Origin: an uncultured bacterium
Lineage (GTDB): Bacteria; Oederibacteriota; PGYV01; CAWJRG01
Assembly (NCBI GenBank): GCA_963845185.1
Contig: CAWJRG010000010.1
Coordinates: forward strand, 800,001-864,000
DNA: 64,000 nucleotides
Direction of reading: 5' to 3'
Below, in pieces: positions 1,768 through 48,848 of the stretch. Position 1 is the first letter of the stretch. Every line of letters begins with the position of its first letter. Both the position numbers and the translations under genes were made by a program. The notes beneath the pieces are model-generated. The model did not search any database. It worked only from the letters and a program-made list of their open reading frames with translations, and was not told the origin of the DNA.

Positions 1768-2038
1768 TGCCATACCTAGGCGGGGAACCAGCGGTGCCCT
1801 GTACCGGCAATCCGCTTCAGCCGGGCCGAGAACTTATCCGAGGGTATGTTTTTCAGACAACTTAAAATTAATTTTTGGCGTTGAAGGCCGGGTCTGATGC
1901 ACTCATCGGCTCTTGAACCCCGTCAGGTCCGGAAGGAAGCAGCGGTAAAATATGTCCGAGAGGTGTCCTCAGGCAGCCTAGCCGGAGTCAAAATTTTTTT
2001 TGAGCCTGTAAGCATAATCGACGATAAGTGGTATGGCA
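1768..2038 (+). ncRNA. ffs: Signal recognition particle RNA, large (Alu-domain) bacterial type
   Basis: Helix-8 motif GTCAGGTCCGGAAGGAAGCAGC at ~1922-1943; terminal pairing TGCCATAC/GTATGGCA; 5' GCGGGGAACCAGCGGTGCCCTGTACC Alu-like segment; directly upstream of dnaX. Confidence 0.92.
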
Positions 2039-8946: not shown

Positions 8947-9453
8947 TCAAATCTGTAGAATATTACATATTATTTCATTATCTTCAACTTCTAATAGGCC
9001 AATAGAATTATATTTTATTCCGCATGTCGCACTACCAGGATTAAAATATTTTATATTCTTAAATGTATCGTTATATGCAGAATGCGTATGCCCAAAAATT
9101 ATCATGTAGGGAAAATCTTTTGAAAAAGTTTTATATAATTTATCCTTGATTACATAAGGGGAACCGCTTCCATGAGATATACATACAATAAATTTATCAT
9201 TTATTTTTGTTGTTATTTCAAGGGAATAAGTAATTTCATGCGAGTCCATATTGCCCTTTACAGCATAAACAGGAGCTATTGTTTCAAGTTCGGTTATAAC
9301 ACCGTTATTAACAATATCCCCGCAATGTATAATAAAATTTGCACCTTTAAAATAATTGTATATTTCTTTAGGAAGGGATTTAGCTCTTGAAGGAATATGT
9401 GTATCTGAAATAACCCCTATTTTTTTGATTCCGACATTATTTATTGATGTCAT
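8947..9453 (-). CDS. YfcE/MJ0936-family metallophosphoesterase
   Basis: ISDTH, HCGD, KGNMD, SHG, FGHTH, NPGS. Confidence 0.9.
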   Translation of the reverse strand: MTSINNVGIKKIGVISDTHIPSRAKSLPKEIYNYFKGANFIIHCGDIVNNGVITELETIAPVYAVKGNMDSHEITYSLEITTKINDKFIVCISHGSGSPYVIKDKLYKTFSKDFPYMIIFGHTHSAYNDTFKNIKYFNPGSATCGIKYNSIGLLEVEDNEIICNILQI

Positions 9454-9832
9454 TCTTAAATTTGTTAACTTCAAGAAGTATTTTCGCAAGGTCGTCATTG
9501 CTTAATTTATCAAGGGCTTTTTCCAGTCTGTCTATTTTTGAATCAGATTTGTTTTCTTCACCGTGCAATTTATCAAGGCCGGAGGCTGTAACATATTTCT
9601 GCTGTAGATCACCCAACACCCTAAATAGAAGTTTTGTTTCGCCTACCGATAAATGACCTTTGGTTTTTTCCTGTAGGATTTTAAGCATGTTAATTATTTG
9701 CCTTGCATGAGGAAGGTTCTGAATTTTTTTGCCGCTTATAAAACGGGGAACTTCACCCAAAGACATTAAGGCTGTCTGTGAAAGAAGCAGTACAAGATTA
9801 ATGAAATCTAAATTATCCGTTTCCTCAGCCAT
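9437..9832 (-). CDS. DUF1844-like protein
   Basis: F..LVLLLSQTALMSLGE, ARQIINMLKILQEKTKGHL pattern. Confidence 0.7.
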   Translation of the reverse strand: MAEETDNLDFINLVLLLSQTALMSLGEVPRFISGKKIQNLPHARQIINMLKILQEKTKGHLSVGETKLLFRVLGDLQQKYVTASGLDKLHGEENKSDSKIDRLEKALDKLSNDDLAKILLEVNKFKNDINK

Positions 9833-9908
9833 TTTTGCTCCATTATTCAAATGAAATTCTTTTATTTATAAGCATCTAGTTAAAGAAAAATAATTAAGAT
9901 TAAATTAT

Positions 9909-10634
9909 TTAAAAAACTTTAAATTTTTTGAATTTTTTTACAAATAACTCCCAGTGGTCCTTAAAATCCCAGTAGCGCCCGGCAAAAGTAGTTGTGCCAT
10001 TAAGTATGCTTTTTTTAAAATCTTCTGCATTTTTGCCTTTAAAAAGAGTATATGCAGTTCCAATGCCATCGAGCGAATGTGAATCTGAACCCCCTGTAAC
10101 AGGTAATTTCCAGTATTTGTTATTTATTTTTCGAGCCTTTGCATCGGTAATCTTTCCTGCTATTGCGGGATTAATCAACTCGACAGCATCAAAATATATA
10201 AATTTATTTTTGCTTTTCAACACATCCTTAAAGCTGCCTTCGCCAACGCTGGTCGTAAGCCAGCTCAAAGGATGAGGTACTATACAAATACCGCCCTGCC
10301 TATGTATTTCCTCAATTGTCCTAAAAAGGCCGGTATATCTTTTTATCCTGTTTTTCATAAATAGACCGATTAGGTGCCCTTTCAAAGTGCTTACTTCCTC
10401 GCCGACTATTATCTGAATACGGTATTTTTTTTTCAGCGCATATTCTTGCGCAGTCAGACCGCCCTTTATCTGGTCATGATCGGTGATGGCTATTACATCA
10501 AGATCGGTATAATGTTCAACATAATCGACAATTTCCTGTACCGTGCACACAGCGTCGCCTATTGATGAATGTATATGATAATCAGCTTTACCCCAGCCTT
10601 TTAGTTTATTTGGTAATATTATTTTTTTAGTCAT
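9909..10634 (-). CDS. PHP-domain phosphoesterase
   Basis: DYHIHS, AITDHD, GEEVST..GH, PHP, GGSDSH. Confidence 0.9.
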   Translation of the reverse strand: MTKKIILPNKLKGWGKADYHIHSSIGDAVCTVQEIVDYVEHYTDLDVIAITDHDQIKGGLTAQEYALKKKYRIQIIVGEEVSTLKGHLIGLFMKNRIKRYTGLFRTIEEIHRQGGICIVPHPLSWLTTSVGEGSFKDVLKSKNKFIYFDAVELINPAIAGKITDAKARKINNKYWKLPVTGGSDSHSLDGIGTAYTLFKGKNAEDFKKSILNGTTTFAGRYWDFKDHWELFVKKFKKFKVF

Positions 10635-10637
10635 TAC

Positions 10638-11522
10638 TTATTGCTCCCACATGGGTCTAAACATATACCATTCTTCAGGATATTGTATAATTATTTTTTC
10701 TGCTTCTGTAAAAATTGCCTGCGTTATTGTCTGTAAATCATTTTCCCTGGAGCCAGTTAGTTTATAATCAAGTATAGCACTAGGAACCCCATAAAACCAG
10801 TCATTTTCACGCATAAGATAACCGACTATTATCTTGGCGCCTGTTTTCAAGGCAAGCCTAGCTGCGGCTGAAGCAACATAAGTCTTTTTTCCAAAAAAAT
10901 CTACCATAACCCTGCTTATATCGGTATTGGGCAGGGGCCGGTCAACGAGTACGTTTAATATACAGTTGTTTTCGAGACAGGAATAGGCATCCCTTAAGTT
11001 TTTATTAGGAAGTATCAAGTTAATGCCGTAATTTTTTCTCGATTCCTCTATAAATTTTGAATAACCGCCGCCAAGGTCATCAACGATTGCCCAAACAGGG
11101 ACTTTTTTATTAAAATAAGAGGCTATTGTTATGCCTGCAATATCCCAGTTTGAAAAATGTAATGTGGCAATAATAAGTCCTTTTTTAAAATTAAGCGCAT
11201 GTTCTATTTCAGCCACGCCTTTACCACGCATCTCAGGAATCCTGCCGGATTTTAGAATTTTATCTATATAAAGAAACTCCACGTTAAATTTGCCATAATT
11301 AGTAAAATTGTCATTCATCGTTTTATATATTTCCGCAGGGGTAGCCTGCCTGCCGAATTTTTTTTGTAAAATAACTGAATAATTATTAAATACATTTTTT
11401 CTTTTCACTCCCCATATAAAAAAAATGAATTTTGTGATCGCACCGGCAACTCCATAAAGGAATTTTATCGGAAAAATTGATATGAATTTTGAAAAAAGTT
11501 TTAAAAAGAGATACATTATCAT
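10638..11522 (-). CDS. LpxL/PatA-family lipid acyltransferase (second copy)
   Basis: HFSNWD (HxxxxD), LVDR, VDFFG, PEEWYMFRPMW. Confidence 0.85.
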   Translation of the reverse strand: MIMYLFLKLFSKFISIFPIKFLYGVAGAITKFIFFIWGVKRKNVFNNYSVILQKKFGRQATPAEIYKTMNDNFTNYGKFNVEFLYIDKILKSGRIPEMRGKGVAEIEHALNFKKGLIIATLHFSNWDIAGITIASYFNKKVPVWAIVDDLGGGYSKFIEESRKNYGINLILPNKNLRDAYSCLENNCILNVLVDRPLPNTDISRVMVDFFGKKTYVASAAARLALKTGAKIIVGYLMRENDWFYGVPSAILDYKLTGSRENDLQTITQAIFTEAEKIIIQYPEEWYMFRPMWEQ

Positions 11523-12649
11523 TCAGCGCTCCATATTTTCTTATAATATTGTATGTTCATTTTTGCTATTTTCTCCCAAGTGAAATTACGCGCCTTTATA
11601 ATGCCATTCGCGCCGATTTTTTTTCTTAATGATCTGTTGCTTATAAGAATATCAAGTTTATCGTAAAGGTCAGCTACATCCCTGCTTTTTGCAAGCAAAC
11701 CGTCTTTGTTATTGGAAACAACGTCATTATAACCAGGTATATCAAAAGCTACAACTGGGATACCGGTAGCCATAGCTTCAAGAAGAACTATTCCAAAGCT
11801 TTCCCCAAAAATTGCTGGTGAGCAAAAGATATCAGCACTTGAATAATAGCGGGGTAAATCTTTTATAGAAACAAAACCTTCGAAATGAACATCCTGTAAC
11901 TTGTTCTTCCCGACGAATTTTTTATAAAGGTTAAGTAAAGGACCTCGGCCAACGATTATCAGACGTATATTTTCATATTTAGTTAAAAGCTTTTTGTAAG
12001 ATTCTAGCAAATAAATAAGACCTTTTCTTTTTTCTATCCTTCCAACAAACAATATATTTATTTTTTTATCATCATACTTTTTAATTTTTTTATTTTTTCG
12101 TTTAAAACGTTTTATACTGACTCCGTTTGGTATTATTTCAACTTCGCCATTAAAATATTTAGCAATACTCCGTTTTGCGGAAGGAGAAACAGCTATTTTG
12201 CCGTGTAAACGTTTCCATAAAGGATATAAAAAACCTCTGCTTAATTTATAAAATAGGTTAGAATTAAAATTGGCATGAAAAGTAGCAATGTTTGTAGATT
12301 TTGAATATTTGATTATTTCATGCGATAAAAAAGGCACAAAAGGCTCCTGAAAATGTATGATATCAAAATTGTAATTATCCAGTATTTTTTTTGTTCTGCT
12401 TTTACCTATAAATAATATAATCCTTCCTGTAGAGCCATTGACAAAAAAAGGAACTCCTTTTCCTATTCGTATTACATCTTCTTCATCTATGCTATGTCCG
12501 CTGAAATGGCCTGTTATAATCTTAACAAAATATCCCATTTTCTTATATTCCTTTTTTAAATGATATACATATTCCTGTACACCTCCGGGTAAAGGGTAAT
12601 AATAAGGGGTAACTATCGCGATTTTTTTGAACAATTTCTTTTTAGTCAT
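11519..12649 (-). CDS. pimA: GT4 glycosyltransferase, PimA-like phosphatidylinositol alpha-mannosyltransferase
   Basis: PY..PLPGGVQ, NGS, HFQEP, ATFHA, IAVS, IPNGV, GESFGIVLLEAMA closely follow the PimA motif order; context with pgsA/ino1/PatA-like genes. Confidence 0.75.
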   Translation of the reverse strand: MTKKKLFKKIAIVTPYYYPLPGGVQEYVYHLKKEYKKMGYFVKIITGHFSGHSIDEEDVIRIGKGVPFFVNGSTGRIILFIGKSRTKKILDNYNFDIIHFQEPFVPFLSHEIIKYSKSTNIATFHANFNSNLFYKLSRGFLYPLWKRLHGKIAVSPSAKRSIAKYFNGEVEIIPNGVSIKRFKRKNKKIKKYDDKKINILFVGRIEKRKGLIYLLESYKKLLTKYENIRLIIVGRGPLLNLYKKFVGKNKLQDVHFEGFVSIKDLPRYYSSADIFCSPAIFGESFGIVLLEAMATGIPVVAFDIPGYNDVVSNNKDGLLAKSRDVADLYDKLDILISNRSLRKKIGANGIIKARNFTWEKIAKMNIQYYKKIWSAE

Positions 12650-13502
12650 ATTTTATCCATACTTTTTGAAGCATGCACCATTGCTCCGGGTATTGGTTTA
12701 TTATCTTTTCCATTTCAATAATGATTTCTTTTGACAGTTTTTCCACATTTTCCTGTGATTTTTCCAGCATTTCAAGATTAAGAATTTTTTTAGTATTAAT
12801 AGCCGGTATAAAATAAAATGGATTTTCTTGCCTAAGCATGCCGCCAAAAATAATAGGGCTTTTATGAGCAAGGGCAAGCTTCGCAGGTCCACTCGGTATA
12901 TAAGCTTTATTGCCGAAAAAATCAAGTATCAGGCCATTTTTATCGAGATCCCTGTCTGATAGAAGTACAAGTATTTCATTATGTTTTAAAGCGTTTAGCA
13001 TCGATTTTATATCATTTGATTCTATTACTTTCATACCAAAACGCTCGCGTGTTTCCTTAAACCAGCGAAAAGCGCCGGATGATAATTTTTCAACAACAAC
13101 ATTAGTCCTGCCTGGAAAAAGGCTGGCTAAAAAAGATCCGCCCAAGTCCCAATTGCCTATATGCGTACTTATCCCAATAAGTCCATGGCCATTTTCAAGT
13201 AATCCGCTTATAAAGTTAAAAGTTGCTTTAAATATATTTTGGTCTGATATTGCATTTAAAAGAATTTCTTTTTTGCAGAAAAGGTCAAAGTAGTAACGGC
13301 CGTAGTTTTTGTAAATCTCTGCCAAAATTTTATCCGGTACATCAGTGGCGTTTAAAACAAAACAAATATTCTTTTTTAAAGTATGTTTTTTAATTTTTGA
13401 AAAGAAAAAAAGGATTAATGCGATTTTCTCAAAAATAAAATATCCCGCCTTACGCGGGATATTCTTTAAAATAAATTCTGATATTTTAAAAATAAAATAC
13501 AT
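12642..13502 (-). CDS. LpxL/PatA-family lipid acyltransferase
   Basis: HIGNWD, LLSDRDL, DFFG...PSGPAKLA, PEQWCMLQKVW. Confidence 0.85.
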   Translation of the reverse strand: MYFIFKISEFILKNIPRKAGYFIFEKIALILFFFSKIKKHTLKKNICFVLNATDVPDKILAEIYKNYGRYYFDLFCKKEILLNAISDQNIFKATFNFISGLLENGHGLIGISTHIGNWDLGGSFLASLFPGRTNVVVEKLSSGAFRWFKETRERFGMKVIESNDIKSMLNALKHNEILVLLSDRDLDKNGLILDFFGNKAYIPSGPAKLALAHKSPIIFGGMLRQENPFYFIPAINTKKILNLEMLEKSQENVEKLSKEIIIEMEKIINQYPEQWCMLQKVWIKYD

Positions 13503-14594
13503 TTATTTTTTGTGTTTTTTTGTATTACCGTCAATAAATTCAGCAACCATTCTTTTTGCAGTCGTATCTGAATATTGTTTCGGAGGGGTCTTCATGAAAT
13601 AGGCACACGGGCCTTCAAGGATGCCACCGATTTTTCTATCCAATGCTATTTTTGCGCACCGAATAGCATCTATTATTACGCCTGCGCTGTTTGGCGAATC
13701 CCATACTTCAAGTTTAAGCTCCACATTTAAAGGAACATCGCCAAAATTTGTGCCCTCGAGCCTGATATAAGCCCATTTTCTGTCTTCCAGCCACGGGATA
13801 TGGTCGCTCGGGCCTACATGTACGTCGGTTTTTTCATTTATTTCATTCTGCAACTGGCTTAGGACAGAATTTGTTTTTGATATTTTTTTTGAATACAGCC
13901 TTTCTCTTTCAAGCATGTTCATAAAATCCATATTACCGCCAAAATTGATCTGATAGGTTCGCAATATTTTTACGCCCCTGTCGCCGAATAATTTTGTGAG
14001 AACCCTGTGAACTATAGTTGCGCCGACCTGTGATTTTATATCATCGCCTATGATAGGCACACCAGCATCCTTAAATCTCTGCGCTGATTCTTTATTAGAG
14101 GCAATAAATACAGGTATAGCATTAATAAATGCAACTTTTGACTTAAGAGCTTCTTCGGCATAATACCTTGTTGCTTTTTCAGAACCAACAGGAAGGTAAC
14201 TTATAAAAACATCTGTTTTTGTTTCTTTTAATACTGCGGCAATATCAACAGGTTTTTTTGGAGATTCAATGATAACCTGTCGATAATATTTTCCAAGGCC
14301 GTCAAATGTATGCCCGCGCAGTACTTTTACTCCAGTTTTTGGAATTTTTGCGAATTCAATGGTATTATTCGGGAAGCTTGCAAGAGCATCTTTTGTATCT
14401 TTACCAACTTTATTTATATCAACATCAAACGCGGCAACAAGCTCAATATCCTTTACCCTGTAACCGCCAAGGTTTGCATTCATAAGACCCGGAACAAATT
14501 CTTCATCTTTCACATTTTTATAGTATTCAAGACCCTGCACAAGAGAAGAAGCACAGTTGCCCGTCCCGGCAATTGCAATTCTTATTTTTCCCAT
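13503..14594 (-). CDS. ino1: myo-inositol-1-phosphate synthase
   Basis: [51 protein letters not shown] 14594 after AGGAGG. Confidence 0.96.
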
Positions 14595-14619
14595 CTTAGT
14601 AAAACCTCCTTTTAGCGCC

Positions 14620-15222
14620 TTAATCATTATTCAAATTTTTTGTTTTAACAAAAACCCACCAAACTCTCTGAATAACTGTTATAAAAGAAAAAAATCCTAT
14701 TACTAACATTGCTTCAAAAATTCTGTTAATCAGCAAGCCAATAATAAAAATTATTAACCTTTCGGGACGCGTAAAAACTCCCACTTCGCAGTCTATTTTT
14801 AAAGCACCTGCCCTTGAACGAGTGTAACTAATCAAGAAAGATAAAAACATCACTATGTATGAAAGGATAATACCATACCGCGAATCTAAATTTACATAAT
14901 GCATTAAAACCGCAAAATATAAGATTCCCTCTGATAATCTGTCAACCGTAGAATCAAGGAAACCGCCAAACTTGGTCTTTTTATTCATTTTGCGCGCAAG
15001 TACACCGTCCAGCATATCAAAAATACTACCCAAAAGCACTATAACAGCAGCTAAAATGAAATTGCCCTTAATAATATAAAAGGCGCCGACGCAAGTTATG
15101 ATAAAACCCAACCATGTAACGGCATTTGGAGTAAAGCCTGCCTTACTCAAAAGAACAATTATAGGCGCGAGAATTTTCTCGCTAAAACCTTTTAAATTAT
15201 CACGTAATTTTTGGTAAGCCAT
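14620..15222 (-). CDS. pgsA: CDP-alcohol phosphatidyltransferase, probable phosphatidylinositol-phosphate synthase
   Basis: [26 protein letters not shown] signature, SYTRSRA, RPER; adjacent to ino1. Confidence 0.85.
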
Positions 15223-15295
15223 TTTTAGGCAATAAATATCTCCTAAAACATTATAATCAAAAAGTGTTTAATTTATTAAGAAAACAACGAGGTCT

Positions 15296-15324
15296 GTTAT
15301 AACACCAATTATAATTTTTGTCAA
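15296..15324 (-). promoter_or_regulatory. Sigma70-type promoter of the pgsA-ino1 operon
   Basis: TTGACA-17 bp-TATAAC on the minus strand. Confidence 0.65.
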
Positions 15325-15344
15325 TAAAAATTCATTAGCCCAGA

Positions 15345-15532
15345 TTACTCCATCGTGGAACTCCTCGCAGATGCGATTAAGCCTTTGTATCTTCACTATT
15401 TAGGCGAGGTGGGGACCAGACACCGCAACTAATGCTGCTCTGATCATATTCCATGGCGCCGGGTATAGATTCATCCTTCTGAAAAGCAAAGGTTAAAAAC
15501 AGCTTCAACTGCGAGGGTCGGACATTGTAGAT
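15345..15532 (-). ncRNA. ssrS: Probable 6S RNA
   Basis: ~185-nt GC-richer intergenic rod: CCTCGCAG/CTGCGAGG, CCTTTG/CAAAGG, central bubble with CCCACC, apical CCGGCGCC/GGTGTCTGG stem. Confidence 0.55.
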
Positions 15533-15605
15533 AGTTGCAATTACGCCATTAAATTGTCATGACATATATAATTTAATGAGGATAATTAATTATTTTATGA
15601 GAGGG

Positions 15606-17132
15606 TTATTTTGGAGAGGTTTTTGTAATAAGTTTTAATTTAATTTCCGCACGCCGGTTTACAAAACGTTCTTCTTCGCTCTTGTTTGGTTTTAAAGGTT
15701 TTTTCTCGCCAAAACCCTTTAAAATAAATTTTGCGTCAATTAATTTATGCCTTACAACAAGATAATTTTTTACCGATTTTGCTCTCGCAGTCGATAATTC
15801 ATAATTTGACGGGTAACGTTTTGTATGAATAGGTATATTATCGGTATGGCCATCAACAGCAATATAAGAAAATTTATATTTTTTAATGATTTTTGAGATT
15901 TCATCAAGTACTGCAAAATATTCCTCTTTGATATTTGCGGAACCGCTGTCAAAATGAATAGTAGGATAAAATAAAATATAATTGCCTTTTTTTACGGCTT
16001 TAACTGCCAATTGGTTTTCGGGTATTACTTCTGGCGTTGCTTCCGGCTGCATGGTAACAACTGTTTCCGGCCTAGTAGGTATTGCAACCGCAGTAATTGA
16101 CGAGGCAACTGGGGATGACTTTACAGCGAAAACATTTTCAACGTTTTCTTTATGTATAGGTTGTGCAACAGGCGGAGCTGTTGGAACCGCAGTTGGCAAA
16201 GGATTTTCCAATACTCTATACAGCCAGGAAGGAGAAACACCGCCGCCGTTTGATATTCTCTGCTGATTTGAACCATCATTATTCATAGTCCATAATTCGG
16301 GCTGGTACTTATCGTTTCGTGCGCTTGAGAAAACGATAAGGTTTCCATCGTGAGAAAAACAAGGTGAATCGCTTCTGCCGTCAAATGTTAATTGAAGTTT
16401 CTGGGTTGCCCCTATATCAAGCGACCAAATATTAGAAACATCTTCATCCAGGACAGTAAATGCTATTTTATTTCCGGCAGGAGACCACGCCGGTGAAGCC
16501 GCAATTTTATTCAATAAATTTGTCAGGGGAGAATCCTGCAAACTGTAAAGATCCTTAATATATAAATTATAAGTATTCATTTTTTCAATCCTTGAAAAAA
16601 CAAGTTTATTGTCTTTTGAAAGAGCAGGGGATATGCAATCATGCGAAGCAGTTAAAGCTTCCTGATTATAGCCATCCCTGGTAATTTTCCACAATTCTTT
16701 GTTCCTTGAATAAATAATAAAAGACGAATCTGTGCTCCAAATAGGCGCATTATGTATGCCGAAATTCTGTATATCGCCCTCAACAGTATCTTCATCGAAG
16801 GTCAGCTGATAAGGCCTGCCTGTCTTAAAATCGCCGACCCAGAGGTTATAACTATTTTTGGTTTTAGCCCAATACGCGACATAAAACCCGTCGGGCGATG
16901 CAGAAGGGAACCATTTGCTGTTATTATCCGAAAATATTTCCTCACGCCCGGTACCGTCTGTATTTGACCAAAATAAATCGCCTTTATAAGTAAATAATAT
17001 TTTTTCCATATGCGGTATTGGCGTCATGGTTGGTACAGGAGTAGGCAGTGCTTTTTGCCTTTTCCTTTCACACGCGGGGAAAAGGCATAAAATAAGCAGT
17101 ATATTGATTATAATAATAAATTTATTTTTCAT
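15606..17132 (-). CDS. Lipoprotein: TolB-like beta-propeller, Pro/Thr linker, OmpA-like peptidoglycan-binding domain
   Basis: Lipobox LFPAC; SPDG/PAWSP PD40 repeats; IHFDSGSA, DGHTDN, NYELSTARA, NRRAEI. Confidence 0.85.
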   Translation of the reverse strand: MKNKFIIIINILLILCLFPACERKRQKALPTPVPTMTPIPHMEKILFTYKGDLFWSNTDGTGREEIFSDNNSKWFPSASPDGFYVAYWAKTKNSYNLWVGDFKTGRPYQLTFDEDTVEGDIQNFGIHNAPIWSTDSSFIIYSRNKELWKITRDGYNQEALTASHDCISPALSKDNKLVFSRIEKMNTYNLYIKDLYSLQDSPLTNLLNKIAASPAWSPAGNKIAFTVLDEDVSNIWSLDIGATQKLQLTFDGRSDSPCFSHDGNLIVFSSARNDKYQPELWTMNNDGSNQQRISNGGGVSPSWLYRVLENPLPTAVPTAPPVAQPIHKENVENVFAVKSSPVASSITAVAIPTRPETVVTMQPEATPEVIPENQLAVKAVKKGNYILFYPTIHFDSGSANIKEEYFAVLDEISKIIKKYKFSYIAVDGHTDNIPIHTKRYPSNYELSTARAKSVKNYLVVRHKLIDAKFILKGFGEKKPLKPNKSEEERFVNRRAEIKLKLITKTSPK

Positions 17133-18198
17133 CTGGACTACCTGAATCTTCTATAATGGAACTGTTTGTTTTTATTTCTGCAAGTACAGGGAAATAAGAT
17201 TTAAAATAATAAGTGAGGCGTATGCTTTCCTTTGTCGAATTAATATTTGTCTTATAAATATCATTGCCTTCAACATAAAGCATGTAATTTCCGTCAGGGA
17301 ACCAAAAAGGGCTAAACCCGCCGTTAAAAGTGATTTGTTTTTCTGAAGAACCGTCAATTTTGGTTATCCATATATTAGGGCCTTTGTTGACATCAGATAT
17401 ATAAGCAATATAATTTTGCTTAATATCTTTGCTGTTTCTGCTCCAGGTTATGTCATTATTAGGGTAATAAGTTTCCTTAATAAATTTATTGTCCAGGCCT
17501 ATATGCGTTATTGTGCATATTCCCCTGTTATTAAAATAGGCTATGTTGCTGTCGTCTCCCCAGTCAAAAGAAGGGGTTATTATATCGCTGGCTACTATTT
17601 TGTTCATATTTGTGCCGTCCGCCAGCATGCTCCACAAGCCGTTGTGAAGTTTTGTTTTTTCCCTTGAAAAGATAATTTTTTCGCCTTCAGGCGAAAGCCT
17701 GAACATGCTTACATCGTGTGTGCCTGTCAGCACAGACGGGGTTTCGCCGGTTTTGTCAATCGTCCAAATATCGCCTTTTTTCAAGAATATCACATTGTTT
17801 GAATCCTTTGACCAGCCTATCTGTCCACGGTTGTATAAATCTATAATTGTTATATTTTCTTTGTCGTTGGTAAGAGGCTTCTGTCCTGTGCCGTCAAAAT
17901 TCATCAGCCATAAATTAATAAACCCCGACCTGTCGGAATAAAAGGCTATTTTTGCCCCGTCAGGCGATATTGCAGGGCACCAGTTATTTTTTTCCTTTGT
18001 CAGAACGTTTTTATCCTCGCCGTTTACACTCATGCTGCCTATCTGCAGAAAATACTTGCTGTCTTCCATAACATAAAAAATGAGTGTTTTATAATTCGAA
18101 GCTTGTATTTTTTCGGTTTCCGGCTGGCCAAACAGAAAAAATGGAATAAGGAGGAAGGTGATAATTAAAAGAAAATTAAATTTTGATTTTATGTTCAT
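17122..18198 (-). CDS. Secreted TolB-like beta-propeller protein
   Basis: Signal peptide; PAISPDG.KIAFYSDRSG and other PD40 repeats. Confidence 0.8.
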   Translation of the reverse strand: MNIKSKFNFLLIITFLLIPFFLFGQPETEKIQASNYKTLIFYVMEDSKYFLQIGSMSVNGEDKNVLTKEKNNWCPAISPDGAKIAFYSDRSGFINLWLMNFDGTGQKPLTNDKENITIIDLYNRGQIGWSKDSNNVIFLKKGDIWTIDKTGETPSVLTGTHDVSMFRLSPEGEKIIFSREKTKLHNGLWSMLADGTNMNKIVASDIITPSFDWGDDSNIAYFNNRGICTITHIGLDNKFIKETYYPNNDITWSRNSKDIKQNYIAYISDVNKGPNIWITKIDGSSEKQITFNGGFSPFWFPDGNYMLYVEGNDIYKTNINSTKESIRLTYYFKSYFPVLAEIKTNSSIIEDSGSPDEK

Positions 18199-31396: not shown

Positions 31397-33300
31397 GTGC
31401 GCCGAGAAAAGCGTATCGGTTCGCGCTGGTGAAAGTCCAGCCTGGGCAAAGGTCAGCCGCCAGCCCAATACCAAATTCCACAAATAGTGAGGCAACGAGC
31501 TAAATGAAGCTGGAAGGCGGGAGACATCGGGATACAACGCAAGTGAAGGTATTGAGCCCCGAAATCGCCAACGTGTCGGAGGCCGACATTTTTCATAAAA
31601 GAGCAGGCAGCAGTCCCACAATCATAAAAAGGCGAGAGAGTGGGAATCCGACGGGGTCTAAGTCCGTGTCAAGATGTCAAGGAGCAGATATGAACTCGGG
31701 AGAGCCGGGACACCCTCAAAACGAGAGTATGCGGCGACAAATCCTAAAAGATAAGGAGCCGCAAAAGATGTTCCGGCAGTCTGACTATCCCATAGTATCG
31801 ATGAAGTCTACGAAAGTAGATGGAGAAAGGGGATAGAGGGAATGCGTATGGACATAAGGGAGACAACCGCCACACACAGAGGTGGAGACGGAATGGCAAC
31901 AAAACTTATGACCATAACAATGCGGGCAAAGGAAAATCCAAAATTGAGATTTACATCGCTGATACACCTGCTCAATGAGGAGTTTCTAATGGAGTGCTTT
32001 GGGGAGTTAAAACAGGACAAAGCCCCGGGCATTGACGGAGTAAGGATAGAGGAATATGAAGTCAACAAAGAGGCAAATATCAAGGATTTAATCAATAGGA
32101 TGAAGGCGTGGAGATACATACCGCAACCAACAAGGCGCGTCTACATCCCCAAGACAAACGGAGACAAGAGGCCGCTGGGAATACCTGCCGTCGAGGATAA
32201 GATAATCCAGATGGGGGTAAAGAAAATTCTTGAGTCAATCTTTGAGGTAGACTTCAGCGAAGTATCTTACGGGTTCAGGCCTGACAGAAATTGTCATCAG
32301 GCATTGAAAATTCTGGATAAGGAAGTAATGACAAAGCCAGTCAACGCAGTAGTGGATATGGACATTGAGAAGTTTTTCGATACCATAAACCACAAATGGC
32401 TAATGAAATGCCTTACGCAAAGGATTGCCGATACAAACCTGATAAGGTTAATCGGCAGGATATTAAATGCAGGGATTATGGAAGAAGGTAAGTTTATCGA
32501 AACGGATAAAGGGACGCCGCAGGGCGGAATACTAAGCCCATTACTGGCGAACATCTACCTACACTACATATTAGACCTGTGGTTCGAAAGGCATGTCAAG
32601 AGACAGCTCAAAGGATACGCCAGTCTGATACGTTATGCCGATGACTTTGTTGTGCTGTTCCAATATGACAGCGAAGCAAAGGAGTTTGGCGAAATGTTAA
32701 GACAGAGGCTTGATAAGTTTGGCCTCAAAATCGCCAAAGATAAATCGAGAATAATCGTATTCGGGCGCCACGCCTGGTATAAGTCCAAAGATACAGGCGG
32801 GAAAATTCCGACCTTTGATTTCCTCGGGTTTACTCATTACTGCGACAAAACCAGAAAGGGCGGCTTCAAATTAGGCCGAAGGACGGCAAGTACAAAATTC
32901 AAACAGAAGATGAAGGCGACGAACTTCTGGCTAAAGAGCGTAAGAAATCTTGTGGAATTAAAACAGTGGTGGCAGGCATTAGGAAGAAAGTTAACGGGCC
33001 ACTACAATTATTACGGGATAAGCGGTAATATGCCCCAAATAACAAAATTCTACTGGAGAAATCGTGCGCTCGCCTATAAATGGATAAACAGGCGAAGCCA
33101 GAAAAGAAGTTACAACTGGGAACAGTTTTGCCGCTTTCTAAGATACAACCCATTGCCGGAACCCAGGATATATCATTTAACCTATTCGCTGTCATCGTAT
33201 TAGGAAGTATTCCCGTGGAGCCGAATGACCGAAACGGTCACGTTCGGTTCTGAGAGGGGCATTAAGTAACCAAAGGAGGTTATAAAAGATGTCTACTCAC
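31397..33300 (+). mobile_element. Group II intron
   Basis: 5' GTGCG at 31397; domain V GAGCCGAATGACCGAAACGGTCACGTTCGGTTC at ~33218-33250; domain VI ending CTACTCAC at 33300; internal RT ORF. Confidence 0.93.
31893..33203 (+). CDS. ltrA: Group II intron reverse transcriptase/maturase, no endonuclease domain
   Basis: KAPGIDG, RPLGIP, SYGFRP, GTPQGGILSPLLANIYLH, RYADD, FDFLGF, GHYNYY. Confidence 0.95.
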   Translation: MATKLMTITMRAKENPKLRFTSLIHLLNEEFLMECFGELKQDKAPGIDGVRIEEYEVNKEANIKDLINRMKAWRYIPQPTRRVYIPKTNGDKRPLGIPAVEDKIIQMGVKKILESIFEVDFSEVSYGFRPDRNCHQALKILDKEVMTKPVNAVVDMDIEKFFDTINHKWLMKCLTQRIADTNLIRLIGRILNAGIMEEGKFIETDKGTPQGGILSPLLANIYLHYILDLWFERHVKRQLKGYASLIRYADDFVVLFQYDSEAKEFGEMLRQRLDKFGLKIAKDKSRIIVFGRHAWYKSKDTGGKIPTFDFLGFTHYCDKTRKGGFKLGRRTASTKFKQKMKATNFWLKSVRNLVELKQWWQALGRKLTGHYNYYGISGNMPQITKFYWRNRALAYKWINRRSQKRSYNWEQFCRFLRYNPLPEPRIYHLTYSLSSY

Positions 33301-33963
33301 AAAAAATATTTTTTTGCATTATTTTTGATTACGGGTCTATTTAGTAATGTATTTACAACGCAATGCCCCGGTTATAAAAATATTTGTTGGGGTTCTTCAG
33401 AAAAAGTAGTTAGAACTGCTTTAAATGCTAAATTTAGAGAACCATTAAACAGTTCTAGTGTTTATGATGGGGGGTGCCTATTTTTAAGTTATGAAGATTT
33501 TGATGGTGTTATTTTCAAAATGCTTGATATAGATACGAGCGAACCTTATTCATTCGATCCATATGTAGTAAATACACTTGACATATACGTACCAAATAGT
33601 TCATTTAAAAGATATAATGTAAAAGAAAACGATTTGGTTGTTTTCTTTAAGGGTAGATTTTTTTGTTATGAAACTTATGTGGGTGAATATGAAACTGTTG
33701 AAGAAGCCTTAATAAAAAAATACGGGCAAGAGATTAAGCCTTGGAAGGATTTTGAGGAAAAAAAGTATTATAATGTATCTGTAAGAATAATTGATGGAAC
33801 AAGAATTCTTAATATTAATGGAATTGTTTTTTATTTTGATGATAAGGTACTCAATGAAATTAAACAGATTGTTGATAAAAAATTGATGAAACAAAAGAAA
33901 CAACAAAATGAAAAAGACAAACAAAATAATTTAGAGGAAAAAAATAAATTAGATAATTTATAA
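33289..33963 (+). CDS. Hypothetical secreted protein (intron 3' exon; start supplied by the intron)
   Basis: KKYFFALFLITGLFS signal peptide; very low GC. Confidence 0.6.
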   Translation: MSTHKKYFFALFLITGLFSNVFTTQCPGYKNICWGSSEKVVRTALNAKFREPLNSSSVYDGGCLFLSYEDFDGVIFKMLDIDTSEPYSFDPYVVNTLDIYVPNSSFKRYNVKENDLVVFFKGRFFCYETYVGEYETVEEALIKKYGQEIKPWKDFEEKKYYNVSVRIIDGTRILNINGIVFYFDDKVLNEIKQIVDKKLMKQKKQQNEKDKQNNLEEKNKLDNL

Positions 33964-48771: not shown

Positions 48772-48848
48772 TGGTGGGCCCTGTAGGACTTGAACCTACG
48801 GCCAATAGATTATGAGTCTACTGCTCTGACCAACTGAGCTAAGGGCCC
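48772..48848 (-). tRNA. tRNA with CAT anticodon, probably tRNA-Ile2 (lysidine)
   Basis: GGGCCCTTAGCTCAGTTGGTCAGAGCAGTAGACTCATAATCTATTGGCCGTAGGTTCAAGTCCTACAGGGCCCACCA; ileX-like; own TTGACA-16-TATAAT promoter. Confidence 0.93.

Follow-up and report, generated by a model that had tools for sequence, protein, structure and literature searches.

A putative PIM-like inositol glycolipid operon in an LPS-bearing bacterium, with a PHP phosphoesterase as candidate PIP phosphatase

Do six closely packed genes in the 64,000-nucleotide stretch of bacterial DNA analysed here (the window) encode one pathway to a PIM-like lipid, and does one of them supply the phosphatase that acts on phosphatidylinositol phosphate (PIP)? 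PIP synthases give PIP, and the enzyme that dephosphorylates it was called as yet unidentified in 2015 (available text of PMC4634129); a 2026 preprint refers to the mycobacterial PIP phosphatase as "long-sought" (10.64898/2026.07.15.738315, available text). An earlier note on this DNA had stated that neither this phosphatase nor the second PIM acyltransferase of mycobacteria is firmly identified, which agrees with the available portions of PMC4634129, PMC9246714, PMC9490103, PMC13223929 and the same preprint. We propose, with a probability of roughly 0.55, that the six genes form one pathway to an acylated, PIM-like phosphatidylinositol glycoside in an LPS-bearing host of the Goldbacteria type, with a PHP-family protein as the phosphatase. 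The PHP family offers a testable candidate for the long-missing PIP phosphatase, linked to inositol-lipid genes across several phyla.

Table 1. Genes of the minus-strand run and the region upstream of it, with positions in the window.
Feature	Position	Strand	Length	Domains and remarks
PIPS, PIP-synthase-type CDP-alcohol phosphatidyltransferase	14620..15222	-	200 aa	CDP-OH_P_transf; multi-pass membrane protein
MIPS/Ino1, myo-inositol-3-phosphate (L-Ino1P) synthase	13503..14627	-	374 aa	Inos-1-P_synth
AT1, PatA-like acyltransferase	12642..13502	-	286 aa	Lip_A_acyltrans
PimA-like GT4 glycosyltransferase	11519..12649	-	376 aa	Glycos_transf_1 + Glyco_transf_4
AT2, second LpxL/PatA-family acyltransferase	10638..11522	-	294 aa	Lip_A_acyltrans
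PHP/PHP_C metal-dependent phosphoesterase, candidate PIP phosphatase	9909..10634	-	241 aa	PHP + PHP_C
Upstream intergenic region, presumed operon promoter region	15223..15605	.	383 nt	

The run extends from 15222 to 9909, and all of its reading frames are co-directional in the ORF listing of the window (Table 1). PIPS and MIPS overlap by 8 nt, MIPS directly abuts AT1, AT1 and GT4 overlap by 8 nt and GT4 and AT2 by 4 nt; AT2 and PHP are separated by 3 nt. The only sizeable gap adjoining the six genes is the upstream intergenic region, beyond which the next gene lies at 15606. Because the genes overlap, we infer that they are co-transcribed from a single promoter. A sigma-70-like sequence matching 10 of 12 positions lies upstream of PIPS (15279-15250, minus strand), but the scan returned 31 promoter-like sites where shuffled sequences would lead one to expect 30.4, which is chance level in this AT-rich DNA. 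The earlier description of six closely packed genes of the claimed families was exact in its coordinates and agreed with both Pfam and NCBIfam, although none of the six proteins reaches a curated NCBIfam equivalog cut-off; the single promoter that it placed before them gained nothing from the scan. The gene order is repeated in L003, and the coordinates in G009 and G019 give the same order. With its genes present in 21 of the 24 genomes of the window's taxonomic order, the arrangement is not a product of chance.

PIPS carries the CDP-alcohol phosphatidyltransferase domain (PF01066, 67.7 bits), hydrophobic segments detected by hydropathy, and the signature D-x2-DG-x2-AR...G-x3-D-x3-D. In NCBIfam it came closest to archaetidylinositol-phosphate synthase, with 151 bits for a cut-off of 180, and to PIPSynth, with 143 bits for a cut-off of 170; the BT1523-type PIPS model gave 105 bits (cut-off 350) and the pgsA model only 31.6. 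The best solved relative was M. tuberculosis PgsA1 (6h53, 80.7 bits). Equivalents of MtPIPS S132, P153 and R155 and of a second inositol-phosphate-binding arginine are kept, with K135 replaced by R (residue roles from the available text of PMC4634129). Identity as a PGP or DIPP synthase was rejected, as the PIP/AIP models were far ahead and the host has its own pgsA elsewhere. The earlier assignment to the PIP-synthase type is upheld by the model scores, by the residues and by this separate pgsA, which scores above its cut-off. MIPS (PF01658, 119.7 bits) aligned over its full length to TIGR03450 at 543 bits, under the cut-off of 638, and shares 58-79% identity with the MIPS genes of related clusters.

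The GT4 protein (PF00534 and PF13439) matched the PimA structures 2gej and 4n9w at 160 bits over residues 8-372 (E 8e-46). The next-best solved GT4 reached 62.6 bits and PimB' 48.7, so that by score over its full length the enzyme groups with PimA, as the earlier note had supposed. Nine of the ten essential PimA residues are kept (Y9, Q18, N63, R68, H118, R196, E199, R201 and E274; list from PMC9202250), while Y62 is replaced by V. The PimA guanine and ribose contacts D252, D253 and K256 are missing, a pattern found across the clade. We take Q18, N63 and R68 to be acceptor-side residues of PimA. In the host genome, neither TIGR01479 (ManC) nor TIGR01472 (Gmd) found a match above its cut-off. 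Given this result and the replaced guanine contacts, mannose is not established as the sugar that the GT4 would transfer.

Both acyltransferases belong to PF03279 (AT1 118.6 bits, AT2 101.5 bits). For AT1, the best NCBIfam model was the PIM acyltransferase NF005919 (135 bits, cut-off 209), followed by PRK08419 (86 bits), and among solved structures PatA scored 69 bits against 29 for LpxM. AT1 keeps the catalytic H126 of PatA in an H-x4-D motif, has D in place of PatA E200 (residue roles from PMC4792965) and lacks a strongly hydrophobic segment by hydropathy. AT2 has the same motif, a D at the E200 position and a hydrophobic N-terminus (residues 1-39). It scored 95 bits with PRK08419 and 81 with PatA, both under the cut-offs, and 57 against PatA and 45 against LpxM among solved structures. 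A PatA-like rather than LpxL-like identity, which the earlier note had given to both, therefore fits AT1, while AT2 is ambiguous between the two models. The acyltransferases of Chloroflexota clusters scored best with PatA in 13 of 13 sampled; the acyltransferase tree, in which composition bias was flagged, gave no clear orthology with these Chloroflexota pairs.

Close homologues carry the names Candidatus Goldbacteria or Goldiibacteriota, and the host genome encodes LpxC and an lptB-lptA-lptC-lpxL-kdsC-kdsD cluster, in keeping with the earlier description of a non-actinobacterial diderm. The LpxL-type gene of this cluster (PRK08419 150 bits, PatA model 58) is likely the host's lipid A acyltransferase. 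A pgsA gene (161 bits, above cut-off) lies elsewhere in the genome with pgpA directly beside it, 560 kb away from the operon, and an IMPase-family gene is also present. Since LpxC, the LpxL of the LPS cluster and pgsA-pgpA are all separate, the operon appears to serve neither lipid A nor PG synthesis.

Homology and gene context are the basis of every step of the pathway that we propose. MIPS would cyclise glucose-6-phosphate to L-myo-inositol-1-phosphate, which PIPS would join to CDP-diacylglycerol to form PIP. The PHP phosphoesterase may then remove the terminal inositol phosphate to leave PI, or may act just after glycosylation. The PimA-like GT4 would add one hexose to the inositol ring, at O-2 by analogy with PimA. 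AT1, predicted to be peripheral, would acylate the sugar, and the membrane-anchored AT2 may add a further acyl chain at an unspecified position. That the operon makes an inositol glycolipid is probable, and the family scores of PIPS, GT4 and AT1, together with the PHP linkage described below, support the earlier PIM-like reading as a whole.

Whether the PHP protein is the phosphatase is a separate matter. PF02811 and PF13263 each pass their cut-off in this protein, which has no transmembrane segment. All 18 homologues compared keep the metal-ligand positions HxH, H-D, E, H and DxH without change, and the AlphaFold2 model has a pLDDT of 91.9, so that the protein looks catalytically competent. 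Its best structural matches were TM0559, BVU_3505, RNase AM, PsfC and Cv1693, at sequence identities of 12-23%. The NCBIfam model for 3',5'-bisphosphonucleotide phosphatase, which we take to be the activity of Cv1693, gave 36 bits. No fusion of a PHP domain to any pathway enzyme was found, and the basic C-terminal helix is not confined to linked PHP proteins.

Within the window's order, the PHP gene and the PimA-like GT4 occur in the same 21 of 24 genomes, the other three having neither, and PHP, GT4 and the acyltransferase pair are present or absent together. We surveyed public genomes through the best 80 PHP loci of 495 confirmed relatives, mostly from Chloroflexota but also from Dormibacteria. 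At least one inositol-lipid gene lay within 7 kb on the same strand in 69 of these 80 loci (GT4 in 61, PIPS in 53, MIPS in 41, at least one acyltransferase in 56). In the subset with long flanks (n=41), GT4 was found in 33 and PIPS in 34; 20 loci had all four gene types and five had none. Of the 50 Chloroflexota genomes ranked highest by PHP E-value, 41 have PIPS no more than 5 kb away on that contig (hand count; 40/49 without the unpublished genome G141). The cluster is thus not peculiar to the host and is widespread in Chloroflexota. Linkage is kept through at least five gene orders, including MIPS-PHP-GT4-PIPS without acyltransferases. Ktedonobacter racemifer has a bare PHP-PIPS pair flanked by unrelated genes, with GT4, AT and MIPS elsewhere.

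Mapped on a tree built from 85 PHP sequences, the 'linked' label required four changes against 14.1 in shuffles (0/500 as low), and 63 of the 70 linked rows fell in one group. PHP relatives unlinked to inositol genes, from 11 of the 80 loci and from the sister family f22 of the same phylum, lie in other clades. In f22, PIPS-MIPS sits within an LPS gene cluster that has no PimA-like GT4. The strong linkage makes the PHP protein a strong but unproven PIP phosphatase candidate, and gives the earlier suggestion of this candidate function strong comparative support. Adjacency to GT4 is about as frequent as to PIPS, so linkage alone cannot tell which phosphorylated intermediate the protein uses, or whether its substrate is a lipid. 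We put the chances that the protein acts on PIP or glycosyl-PIP at about even.

It is rather unlikely, but worth weighing, that a PIM-like glycolipid is made with a PgpA-family or other enzyme as PIP phosphatase. The PHP protein would then have an accessory job, such as hydrolysis of free inositol phosphate, pAp or nucleoside diphosphate, or headgroup turnover as a phosphodiesterase. Its nearest solved relatives, which either cleave phosphoesters of nucleotides or RNA (RNase AM, Cv1693) or are uncharacterised, fit such a job, as do the accessory nucleotide hydrolase-like genes that the mycobacterial pgsA1-patA-pimA operon presumably includes. For an accessory nucleotide hydrolase, however, the bare pair in Ktedonobacter and the five gene orders would be unexpected, and an enzyme acting as an inositol monophosphatase would draw on the very substrate that PIPS needs. 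BT_1525, the PIP phosphatase of Bacteroides, belongs to the PgpA family (available text of PMC9246714), and therefore the host's PgpA could serve instead, although its place beside the distant pgsA suggests a role in PG synthesis. For mycobacteria, the non-homologous EphE has been proposed (available text of 10.64898/2026.07.15.738315).

The six genes might also be neighbours from two pathways, PIPS and MIPS making plain PI or an inositol-phosphate headgroup while GT4 and the acyltransferases modify lipid A, LPS core or a glycosyl-diacylglycerol. In favour of this, the host is a diderm with LPS, AT2 scores slightly better with the lipid A lauroyl acyltransferase model than with PatA, f22 has its PIPS-MIPS in an LPS cluster, and sequence cannot reveal the donor or acceptor specificity of a GT4. 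We nevertheless judge this improbable: PimA is about 100 bits ahead of other solved GT4s with N63, R68 and Q18 kept, the LPS cluster has its own LpxL, and PHP, GT4 and the AT pair come and go together in the window's order. Chloroflexota, which to our knowledge generally lack LPS, show the same GT4-plus-AT set with PIPS and MIPS, their sampled acyltransferases all being closest to PatA. A CDP-alcohol transferase making PGP or a soluble osmolyte of the di-myo-inositol phosphate type, with the PHP protein dephosphorylating that product, is very improbable. DIPP synthases likewise use inositol phosphate and require a phosphatase, and PIPS weakly matches the DIPP-synthase model (53 bits) and AF2299 (50 bits). 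Yet the DIPPS cut-off is 580, PIPS has no cytidylyltransferase domain in Pfam, the models for PIP/AIP synthase are ahead by about 100 bits, a true pgsA lies elsewhere and the operon neighbours are lipid-modifying enzymes.

The preferred reading, a single PIM-like pathway, has its closest counterpart in the actinobacterial PIM pathway (pgsA1-patA-pimA and ino1), which uses the same families: PIP synthase, PimA-type GT4, PatA-type acyltransferase and MIPS. GT4, AT1 and PIPS of the window are each best matched by the solved mycobacterial enzyme, and catalytic and substrate residues are largely kept. The differences are that the host belongs to another phylum and is a diderm with LPS, that ino1 lies inside the operon, that the operon has no PimB'-like second GT4 and two acyltransferases instead of one, and that a PHP/PHP_C phosphoesterase is included; in the control genome of C. 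glutamicum, PHP_C was not matched. The proteins also fall under equivalog cut-offs, and the GT4 lacks the guanine contacts of PimA. Another diderm outside the actinobacteria, Bacteroides thetaiotaomicron, likewise groups MIPS, PIP synthase and a dedicated PIP phosphatase in BT_1522-BT_1526 (Heaver et al. 2022, PMC9246714). According to the available text of that paper, BT_1525 is PgpA-like and the products of the pathway are PI and inositol sphingolipids, made without a PimA/PatA-type glycosylation-acylation module, whereas the clustered phosphoesterase of the window, itself a candidate, is of the unrelated PHP family, with PgpA beside pgsA.

The window PHP protein has its fold and metal-ligand motifs in common with the TrpH/YciV group (RNase AM 7ug9/9etk, Cv1693 2yb1, TM0559 2anu and BVU_3505 3e38). 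Cv1693-type enzymes, as we understand them, strip a phosphomonoester from a substrate with a second phosphate, which is formally similar to PIP. We know of no member of this group that acts on a lipid; what marks out the clade of the window protein is that its genes are linked to those for inositol lipids. EphE, an alpha/beta-hydrolase unrelated to PHP in fold and family, is a candidate for the same step, and both candidacies are indirect: that of EphE is based on the phenotype of a mutant and on a prediction that it interacts with PimA, direct biochemical evidence being lacking according to the available text of the preprint (10.64898/2026.07.15.738315), and that of the PHP protein on a gene neighbourhood conserved across phyla. 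The operon would encode a variant of the known PIM-type pathway, and the linkage of PHP to inositol-lipid genes is the main new result.

Six co-directional open reading frames (ORFs) lie on the minus strand at exactly the coordinates that the earlier note had given for a putative inositol glycolipid operon. In gene order, their Pfam and NCBIfam matches are a CDP-alcohol phosphatidyltransferase (PIPS, of the phosphatidylinositol phosphate (PIP) synthase type), an inositol-1-phosphate synthase (MIPS), a Lip_A_acyltrans protein (AT1), a glycosyltransferase with the Pfam domains Glycos_transf_1 and Glyco_transf_4 (GT4), a second Lip_A_acyltrans protein (AT2), and a protein with PHP and PHP_C domains, the sole hydrolase in the operon. 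The first four junctions overlap by 8, 0, 8, and 4 nt, the last is a 3-nt gap, and a 383-nt gap lies ahead of PIPS, the first gene. Because the genes overlap, we infer that they are expressed as one transcript. A consensus promoter scan returned 31 promoter-like sites against 30.4 expected, which is uninformative in AT-rich DNA and speaks neither for nor against the single promoter postulated earlier; a terminator scan returned 4 terminator-like sites against 4.9 expected.

Just upstream of the operon lie two adjoining TolB-like beta-propeller (PD40 repeat) proteins, the first of which (508 aa) seems to begin like a lipoprotein and carries an OmpA peptidoglycan-binding domain at its C-terminus. 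On the other side, 58 nt beyond the PHP gene and on its strand, come two genes that overlap each other, one for a DUF1844 protein and one for a YfcE-family metallophosphodiesterase; both may be co-transcribed with the operon. They were rejected as operon members because they have no counterparts within 9 kb in L003, a locus from a named Goldbacteria metagenome-assembled genome (MAG). The window also holds group II intron domains (Rfam) on either side of an ORF that presumably encodes the intron-encoded protein, a single tRNA gene, and an SRP RNA of the large bacterial type (146 bits).

Coordinates of the operon genes and of other features in the window.
Feature	Position	Strand	Length
PIPS ORF	14620-15222	-	200 aa
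MIPS ORF	13503-14627	-	374 aa
AT1 ORF	12642-13502	-	286 aa
GT4 ORF	11519-12649	-	376 aa
AT2 ORF	10638-11522	-	294 aa
PHP ORF	9909-10634	-	241 aa
DUF1844 gene	9437-9850	-	
YfcE-type phosphodiesterase gene	8947-9498	-	
Two TolB-like proteins	15606-18198	-	
Group II intron, whole span	31432-33302	+	
Group II intron domains D1-D4	31432-31666	+	
ORF between the intron domains	31842-33203		453 aa
Group II intron catalytic domain	33216-33302	+	
Large-type bacterial SRP RNA	1771-2035	+	
tRNA gene	48775-48848	-	

The CDP-alcohol transferase matches PF01066 with 67.7 bits and carries the signature D-x2-DG-x2-AR...G-x3-D-x3-D, which aligns to the motif of Mycobacterium tuberculosis PgsA1, including D93; PgsA1 is also its best solved relative (80.7 bits). 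R155 of this protein lies in an R-P-E-R motif and corresponds to R155 in the inositol-phosphate pocket of the M. tuberculosis enzyme (MtPIPS); R186 lies in a Q-R-V motif and corresponds to the second pocket arginine of the Renibacterium protein. S132 and P153 of MtPIPS are conserved too, and R stands in place of K135 (residue roles according to PMC4634129). The best NCBIfam models are NF040950 for archaeal archaetidylinositol phosphate (AIP) synthase, with 151 bits against a cut-off of 180, and NF045883 for PIP synthase, with 143 against 170. Because all curated cut-offs were missed, we regard the protein as a divergent member of the PIP-synthase type, its product being predicted from sequence similarity. 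As the earlier note had supposed, it is neither a PGP synthase nor a DIPP synthase. The pgsA model TIGR00560 gives 31.6 bits against a cut-off of 109, and the genome has a true pgsA (161 bits, above the cut-off) at another place, 560 kb from the operon; the bifunctional DIPP synthase model NF041135, whose cut-off is 580 bits, gives 53, and there is no extra domain. A PgpA-family gene (C10:242325-242741) sits directly beside this pgsA. The two adjoin at G000:C10:242325-243479 in the host genome, G000 (locus L101, 2805-3989), as a phosphatidylglycerol synthase-phosphatase pair that parallels the pair proposed here for PIPS and PHP in phosphatidylinositol (PI) synthesis. MIPS matches PF01658 above the cut-off (119.7 bits) and aligns over all 355 positions of TIGR03450 (1-355), with 543 bits, below the equivalog cut-off of 638.

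The affinities of the glycosyltransferase and the acyltransferases were judged by scores against solved structures and curated models. By this measure GT4 groups with PimA, as claimed: the M. smegmatis PimA structures 2gej and 4n9w match its residues 8-372 with 160 bits (E 8e-46), against 62.6 bits for the next solved GT4 enzyme, about 49 for the MshA type, and 48.7 for PimB'. Nine of ten residues reported as essential in PimA (PMC9202250) are kept, namely Y9, Q18, N63, R68, H118, R196, E199, R201, and E274, while Y62 is replaced by V; R68, H118, R196, R201, K202, E274, and E282 are invariant in 11 aligned GT4s from such clusters. GT4 has S, I, and L at the PimA guanine and ribose contacts D252, D253, and K256, and their replacement is clade-wide, being common to all 11 aligned cluster proteins. 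Model searches of the host genome gave at best 20.5 bits for a TIGR01479-type ManC (this pyrophosphorylase type only) and at most 63.7 bits for the Gmd model TIGR01472, against a cut-off of 415. Because the guanine contacts are replaced and the ManC and Gmd models found no match above cut-off, we term the predicted product a PI glycoside, not a mannoside.

AT1 proved PatA-like, as proposed. Its best model is NF005919, for an acyltransferase of the mycobacterial PI mannosides (PIMs), at 135 bits (below the cut-off of 209; next model 86), and among solved structures it matches PatA with 69 bits against 29 for LpxM. It keeps the catalytic H126 of PatA in an H-x4-D motif and has Asp in place of E200, a block at which the PatA family has Glu or Asp (PMC4792965, also for residue roles). 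AT2 has the catalytic His in an H-x4-D motif and Asp at the E200 position, and hydropathy indicates a hydrophobic N-terminus in AT2 and none in AT1. Its structural matches are 57 bits for PatA and 45 for LpxM; its best model is PRK08419 (lipid A lauroyl acyltransferase), with 95 bits against 81 for PatA. For neither acyltransferase does an LpxL model reach its cut-off, and AT2 is ambiguous between PatA and LpxL. A third Lip_A_acyltrans paralogue (PRK08419 150 bits, PatA model 58 bits) sits in the kdsD-kdsC-lpxL-lptCAB cluster, on a different contig from the operon, and by its sequence and setting is likely the lipid A enzyme of this organism.

In an acyltransferase tree (FastTree, 113 rows; HSPs below 180 aa and ORFs below 220 aa dropped), Goldbacteria AT1, AT2, and LPS-cluster LpxLs group against all Chloroflexota acyltransferases, with a support of 95 and a warning of composition bias. 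Pairwise scores had paired AT2 with the first and AT1 with the second Chloroflexota acyltransferase; this correspondence was set aside, as the tree, flagged for that bias, did not confirm it. All 13 sampled acyltransferases from Chloroflexota and Dormibacteria clusters match the PatA model best, with scores of 68-178 bits that all stay below the cut-off of 209. Judged by these scores, two, sometimes three, PatA-like genes per cluster are therefore the rule and not a peculiarity of the window.

The host genome (3.5 Mb, 99% complete), of which the window is G000:C10:800001-864000, encodes LpxC and a kdsD-kdsC-lpxL-lptC-lptA-lptB cluster, and we therefore consider its description as a non-actinobacterial diderm correct. 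The nearest relatives of the window's proteins carry the labels Candidatus Goldbacteria or Goldiibacteriota.

Bacterial PI synthesis runs through PIP, and PIP synthases need a phosphatase partner. The PHP protein matches PF02811 (30.5 bits) and PF13263 (40.6 bits), both above cut-off, and looks catalytically competent from its sequence; H20, H22, H53, D54, E80, H121, D184, and H186 are invariant in 18 PHP homologues of 32-71% identity. An AlphaFold2 model built on the homologue alignment (mean pLDDT 91.9) is nearest to the uncharacterised structure TM0559 (Foldseek, TM 0.62-0.72), and further matches, at 12-23% identity, are BVU_3505, RNase AM, PsfC, BAD_1165, and Cv1693, in agreement with a profile search. 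Because none of these structural matches is a lipid phosphatase, the fold confirms the PHP superfamily, not the substrate. Hydropathy gave no transmembrane segment, and Pfam gave no match to PgpA (PF04608), the domain of PIP phosphatases of the BT_1525 type. In the ESM Atlas the protein matched Chloroflexota and Dormibacterota clusters labelled only as PHP or 'hypothetical'. Among 14 control genomes, PHP_C (PF13263) matches eight, including the archaea M. jannaschii, H. volcanii, S. acidocaldarius, and M. acetivorans, and gave no match in C. glutamicum.

Two lines of evidence considered for the PHP protein were rejected. The charge of a basic, amphipathic C-terminal helix, considered as a membrane-binding signature, does not discriminate: over the final 35 residues the median net charge is +6 in 70 PHP proteins linked to inositol-lipid genes and +4 in 15 unlinked ones, and the hydrophobic moments are equal. 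Apparent fusions of an acyltransferase with PHP, in frames of 554-693 aa from GC-rich Chloroflexota, were discarded because six translated extensions are rich in Arg, Pro, and Ala and look out-of-frame. The two genes are in different frames in all four loci examined (71-75% GC), and no PHP fusions were found among longer proteins at E <= 1e-20, which is weak evidence. Frames of 378-693 aa reach upstream of PHP in several Chloroflexota (loci L033, L050, L059, L065, L067, and L072; genomes G137, G149, G182, G191, and G227); they appear out-of-frame, and gene callers could take them for fusions.

In 24 genomes of the same order, the host included, the PHP profile is strong (at least 288 bits) in 21, and a PimA-like GT4 (E <= 1e-150) occurs in those same 21. 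PIPS is present in 20 of the 24; it was not found in G010 and G015 (270 contigs each), and the PHP match of G015 begins at base 1 of a contig. In most genomes some 2 kb separates the two acyltransferase genes. Two genomes (G001 and G008) have neither PHP, GT4, PIPS, nor the acyltransferase pair, and one (G006, 82% complete) has only PIPS of these. The gene order of the window recurs in L003 and, by coordinates, in G009 and G019. A sister family of the same phylum (f22) has PIPS in 29 and PHP in 22 of 31 genomes; we dropped this co-occurrence as support because the PHP gene there adjoins a two-component system and belongs to a separate, unlinked clade. None of these 31 genomes has a PimA-like GT4 at E <= 1e-40. 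In this family a PIPS-MIPS pair lies directly downstream of kdsD-kdsC-lpxL-lptC-lptA-lptB (L096, G074:C5:119000-138500; also L098 and L100), and it is unusual to find inositol phospholipid genes within a cluster for LPS synthesis and export.

A PHP profile search of public species genomes yielded 495 confirmed relatives; the analysis used the 80 best loci among them. These best 80 of 495 are mostly from Chloroflexota (Anaerolineae, Dehalococcoidia, Ktedonobacteria, Limnocylindria, Thermoflexus, Tepidiformales), with one Dormibacteria locus and a few MAGs labelled as other phyla, which nest among Chloroflexota in the tree. Genes within 7 kb on the same strand were counted as linked, also in a subset of 41 loci with at least 5 kb of upstream and 3 kb of downstream sequence.

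Genes linked to PHP in the best 80 of 495 loci and in the long-flank subset.
Genes near PHP	Best 80 of 495 loci	Long-flank loci
At least one inositol-lipid gene	69/80	36/41
PimA-like GT4	61/80	33/41
PIPS	53/80	34/41
MIPS	41/80	25/41
At least one PatA-like acyltransferase	56/80	25/41
At least two acyltransferases	40/80	20/41
All four gene types		20/41
No inositol-lipid gene	11/80	5/41

Around this linkage, at least five orders of the genes are seen. The Goldbacteria order is PIPS-MIPS-AT1-GT4-AT2-PHP, the commonest is MIPS-AT-AT-PHP-GT4-PIPS, and others are PIPS-MIPS-AT-AT-PHP-GT4 (for example L103-L106), MIPS-PHP-GT4-PIPS without acyltransferases (L017, L027, L031, L032, and L039), and PHP-PIPS alone in Ktedonobacteraceae (L053, L055, and L069). 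The neighbours of the PHP-PIPS pair in Ktedonobacter racemifer are not lipid genes; they encode a regulator, a luciferase-like monooxygenase, and an NYN-domain protein. In an even sample of 151 Chloroflexota genomes (tallies here include the unpublished G141 and G248), PIPS occurs in 141 and a PHP-profile match (E <= 1e-25) in 136; because the near-universal PIPS makes presence and absence uninformative, adjacency was counted instead. By hand count, PIPS lies within 5 kb of PHP on the same contig in 41 of the 50 genomes with the best E-values (40 of 49 without G141). Of the remaining nine, seven have PIPS on a different contig and two lack it at the threshold used.

On a PHP tree of 85 rows (IQ-TREE quick mode; HSPs below 150 aa dropped), the label 'linked' requires 4 changes, against a mean of 14.1 for shuffled labels, and none of 500 shuffles was as low. 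There are 70 linked rows, and 63 of them fall into one group (SH-aLRT 89); the seven from Ktedonobacteria make up a separate clade with good support, and unlinked proteins fall mostly in separate clades. The window PHP pairs with L003 (support 100) within the large linked group, whose backbone is weakly supported. Any transfer between Chloroflexota and Goldbacteria may have gone either way. In Roseiflexaceae-type Chloroflexota, two tandem PHP/PHP_C paralogues (L078 8200-9618 and L081 8216-9642), unlinked to inositol-lipid genes, form a clade of their own.

Taken as a pathway, the six genes would follow the logic of early PIM synthesis, in which MIPS and PIPS act before a dephosphorylation, a PimA-type glycosylation, and a PatA-type acylation. 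On the sequence evidence, the operon probably directs the synthesis of an inositol glycolipid. For the dephosphorylation, the PHP protein is the candidate, acting on PIP or on glycosyl-PIP, and we put the probability of this reading at roughly one half. In its favour, PHP still neighbours PIPS at loci where no other gene of the pathway remains, and the PgpA homologue of the host pairs with pgsA, not with PIPS. One weakness is that PHP adjoins GT4 about as often as PIPS; others are that PHP paralogues without the linkage occur and that all six proteins fall short of the curated NCBIfam equivalog cut-offs. A more tentative reading, to which we give slightly less than even odds, is that in Chloroflexota, Dormibacterota, and Goldbacteria a distinct clade of PHP/PHP_C metallophosphoesterases serves bacterial PI synthesis as its dedicated PIP phosphatase. 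Archaea need an equivalent phosphatase for AIP, and it is conceivable that archaeal PHP_C proteins have this role.

The PIP phosphatase was called 'as-yet-unidentified' in 2015 (PMC4634129), and the first was assigned in 2022, in Bacteroides only, to the PgpA-like BT_1525 (PMC9246714). The mycobacterial enzyme was still 'long-sought' in July 2026, when EphE was proposed, with 'direct biochemical evidence ... lacking' (10.64898/2026.07.15.738315). As a small soluble protein that neighbours PIPS across phyla and gene orders, PHP offers a concrete and easily expressed candidate. The second, sometimes third, conserved PatA-like acyltransferase likewise provides a handle on multi-acylation. The mycobacterial inositol acyltransferase, still called unknown (PMC13223929), has been argued to be probably periplasmic and unrelated to PatA (PMC9490103). 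If PHP is the phosphatase, the hydroxyl that it frees on inositol might be acylated by one of the two paired enzymes of the PatA type; that AT2 does so is an attractive speculation.

The predicted range of PIM-like lipids would widen from Actinobacteria to most sampled Chloroflexota, Dormibacteria, and an LPS-bearing Goldbacteria lineage. Acylated PI glycosides of this kind would then be a widespread envelope component well beyond Actinobacteria, one LPS diderm included, and as Goldbacteria have LPS too, this raises the question of where the PI glycoside sits in a classical diderm envelope. The literature search, made in a library with few subscription journals, turned up no paper that connects PHP-family proteins with PIP or reports this cluster from Chloroflexota or Goldbacteria. 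The Goldbacteria genome paper PMC7031533 does not use the words inositol, lipid, lipopolysaccharide, or outer membrane. The type of pathway is already known; what appears new is the PHP candidate, the paired acyltransferases, and the occurrence in an LPS diderm and in Chloroflexota. If the assignment is correct, the PHP clade would represent a further, non-homologous solution to PIP dephosphorylation, besides the Bacteroides enzyme of the PgpA type and EphE, the one proposed for mycobacteria.
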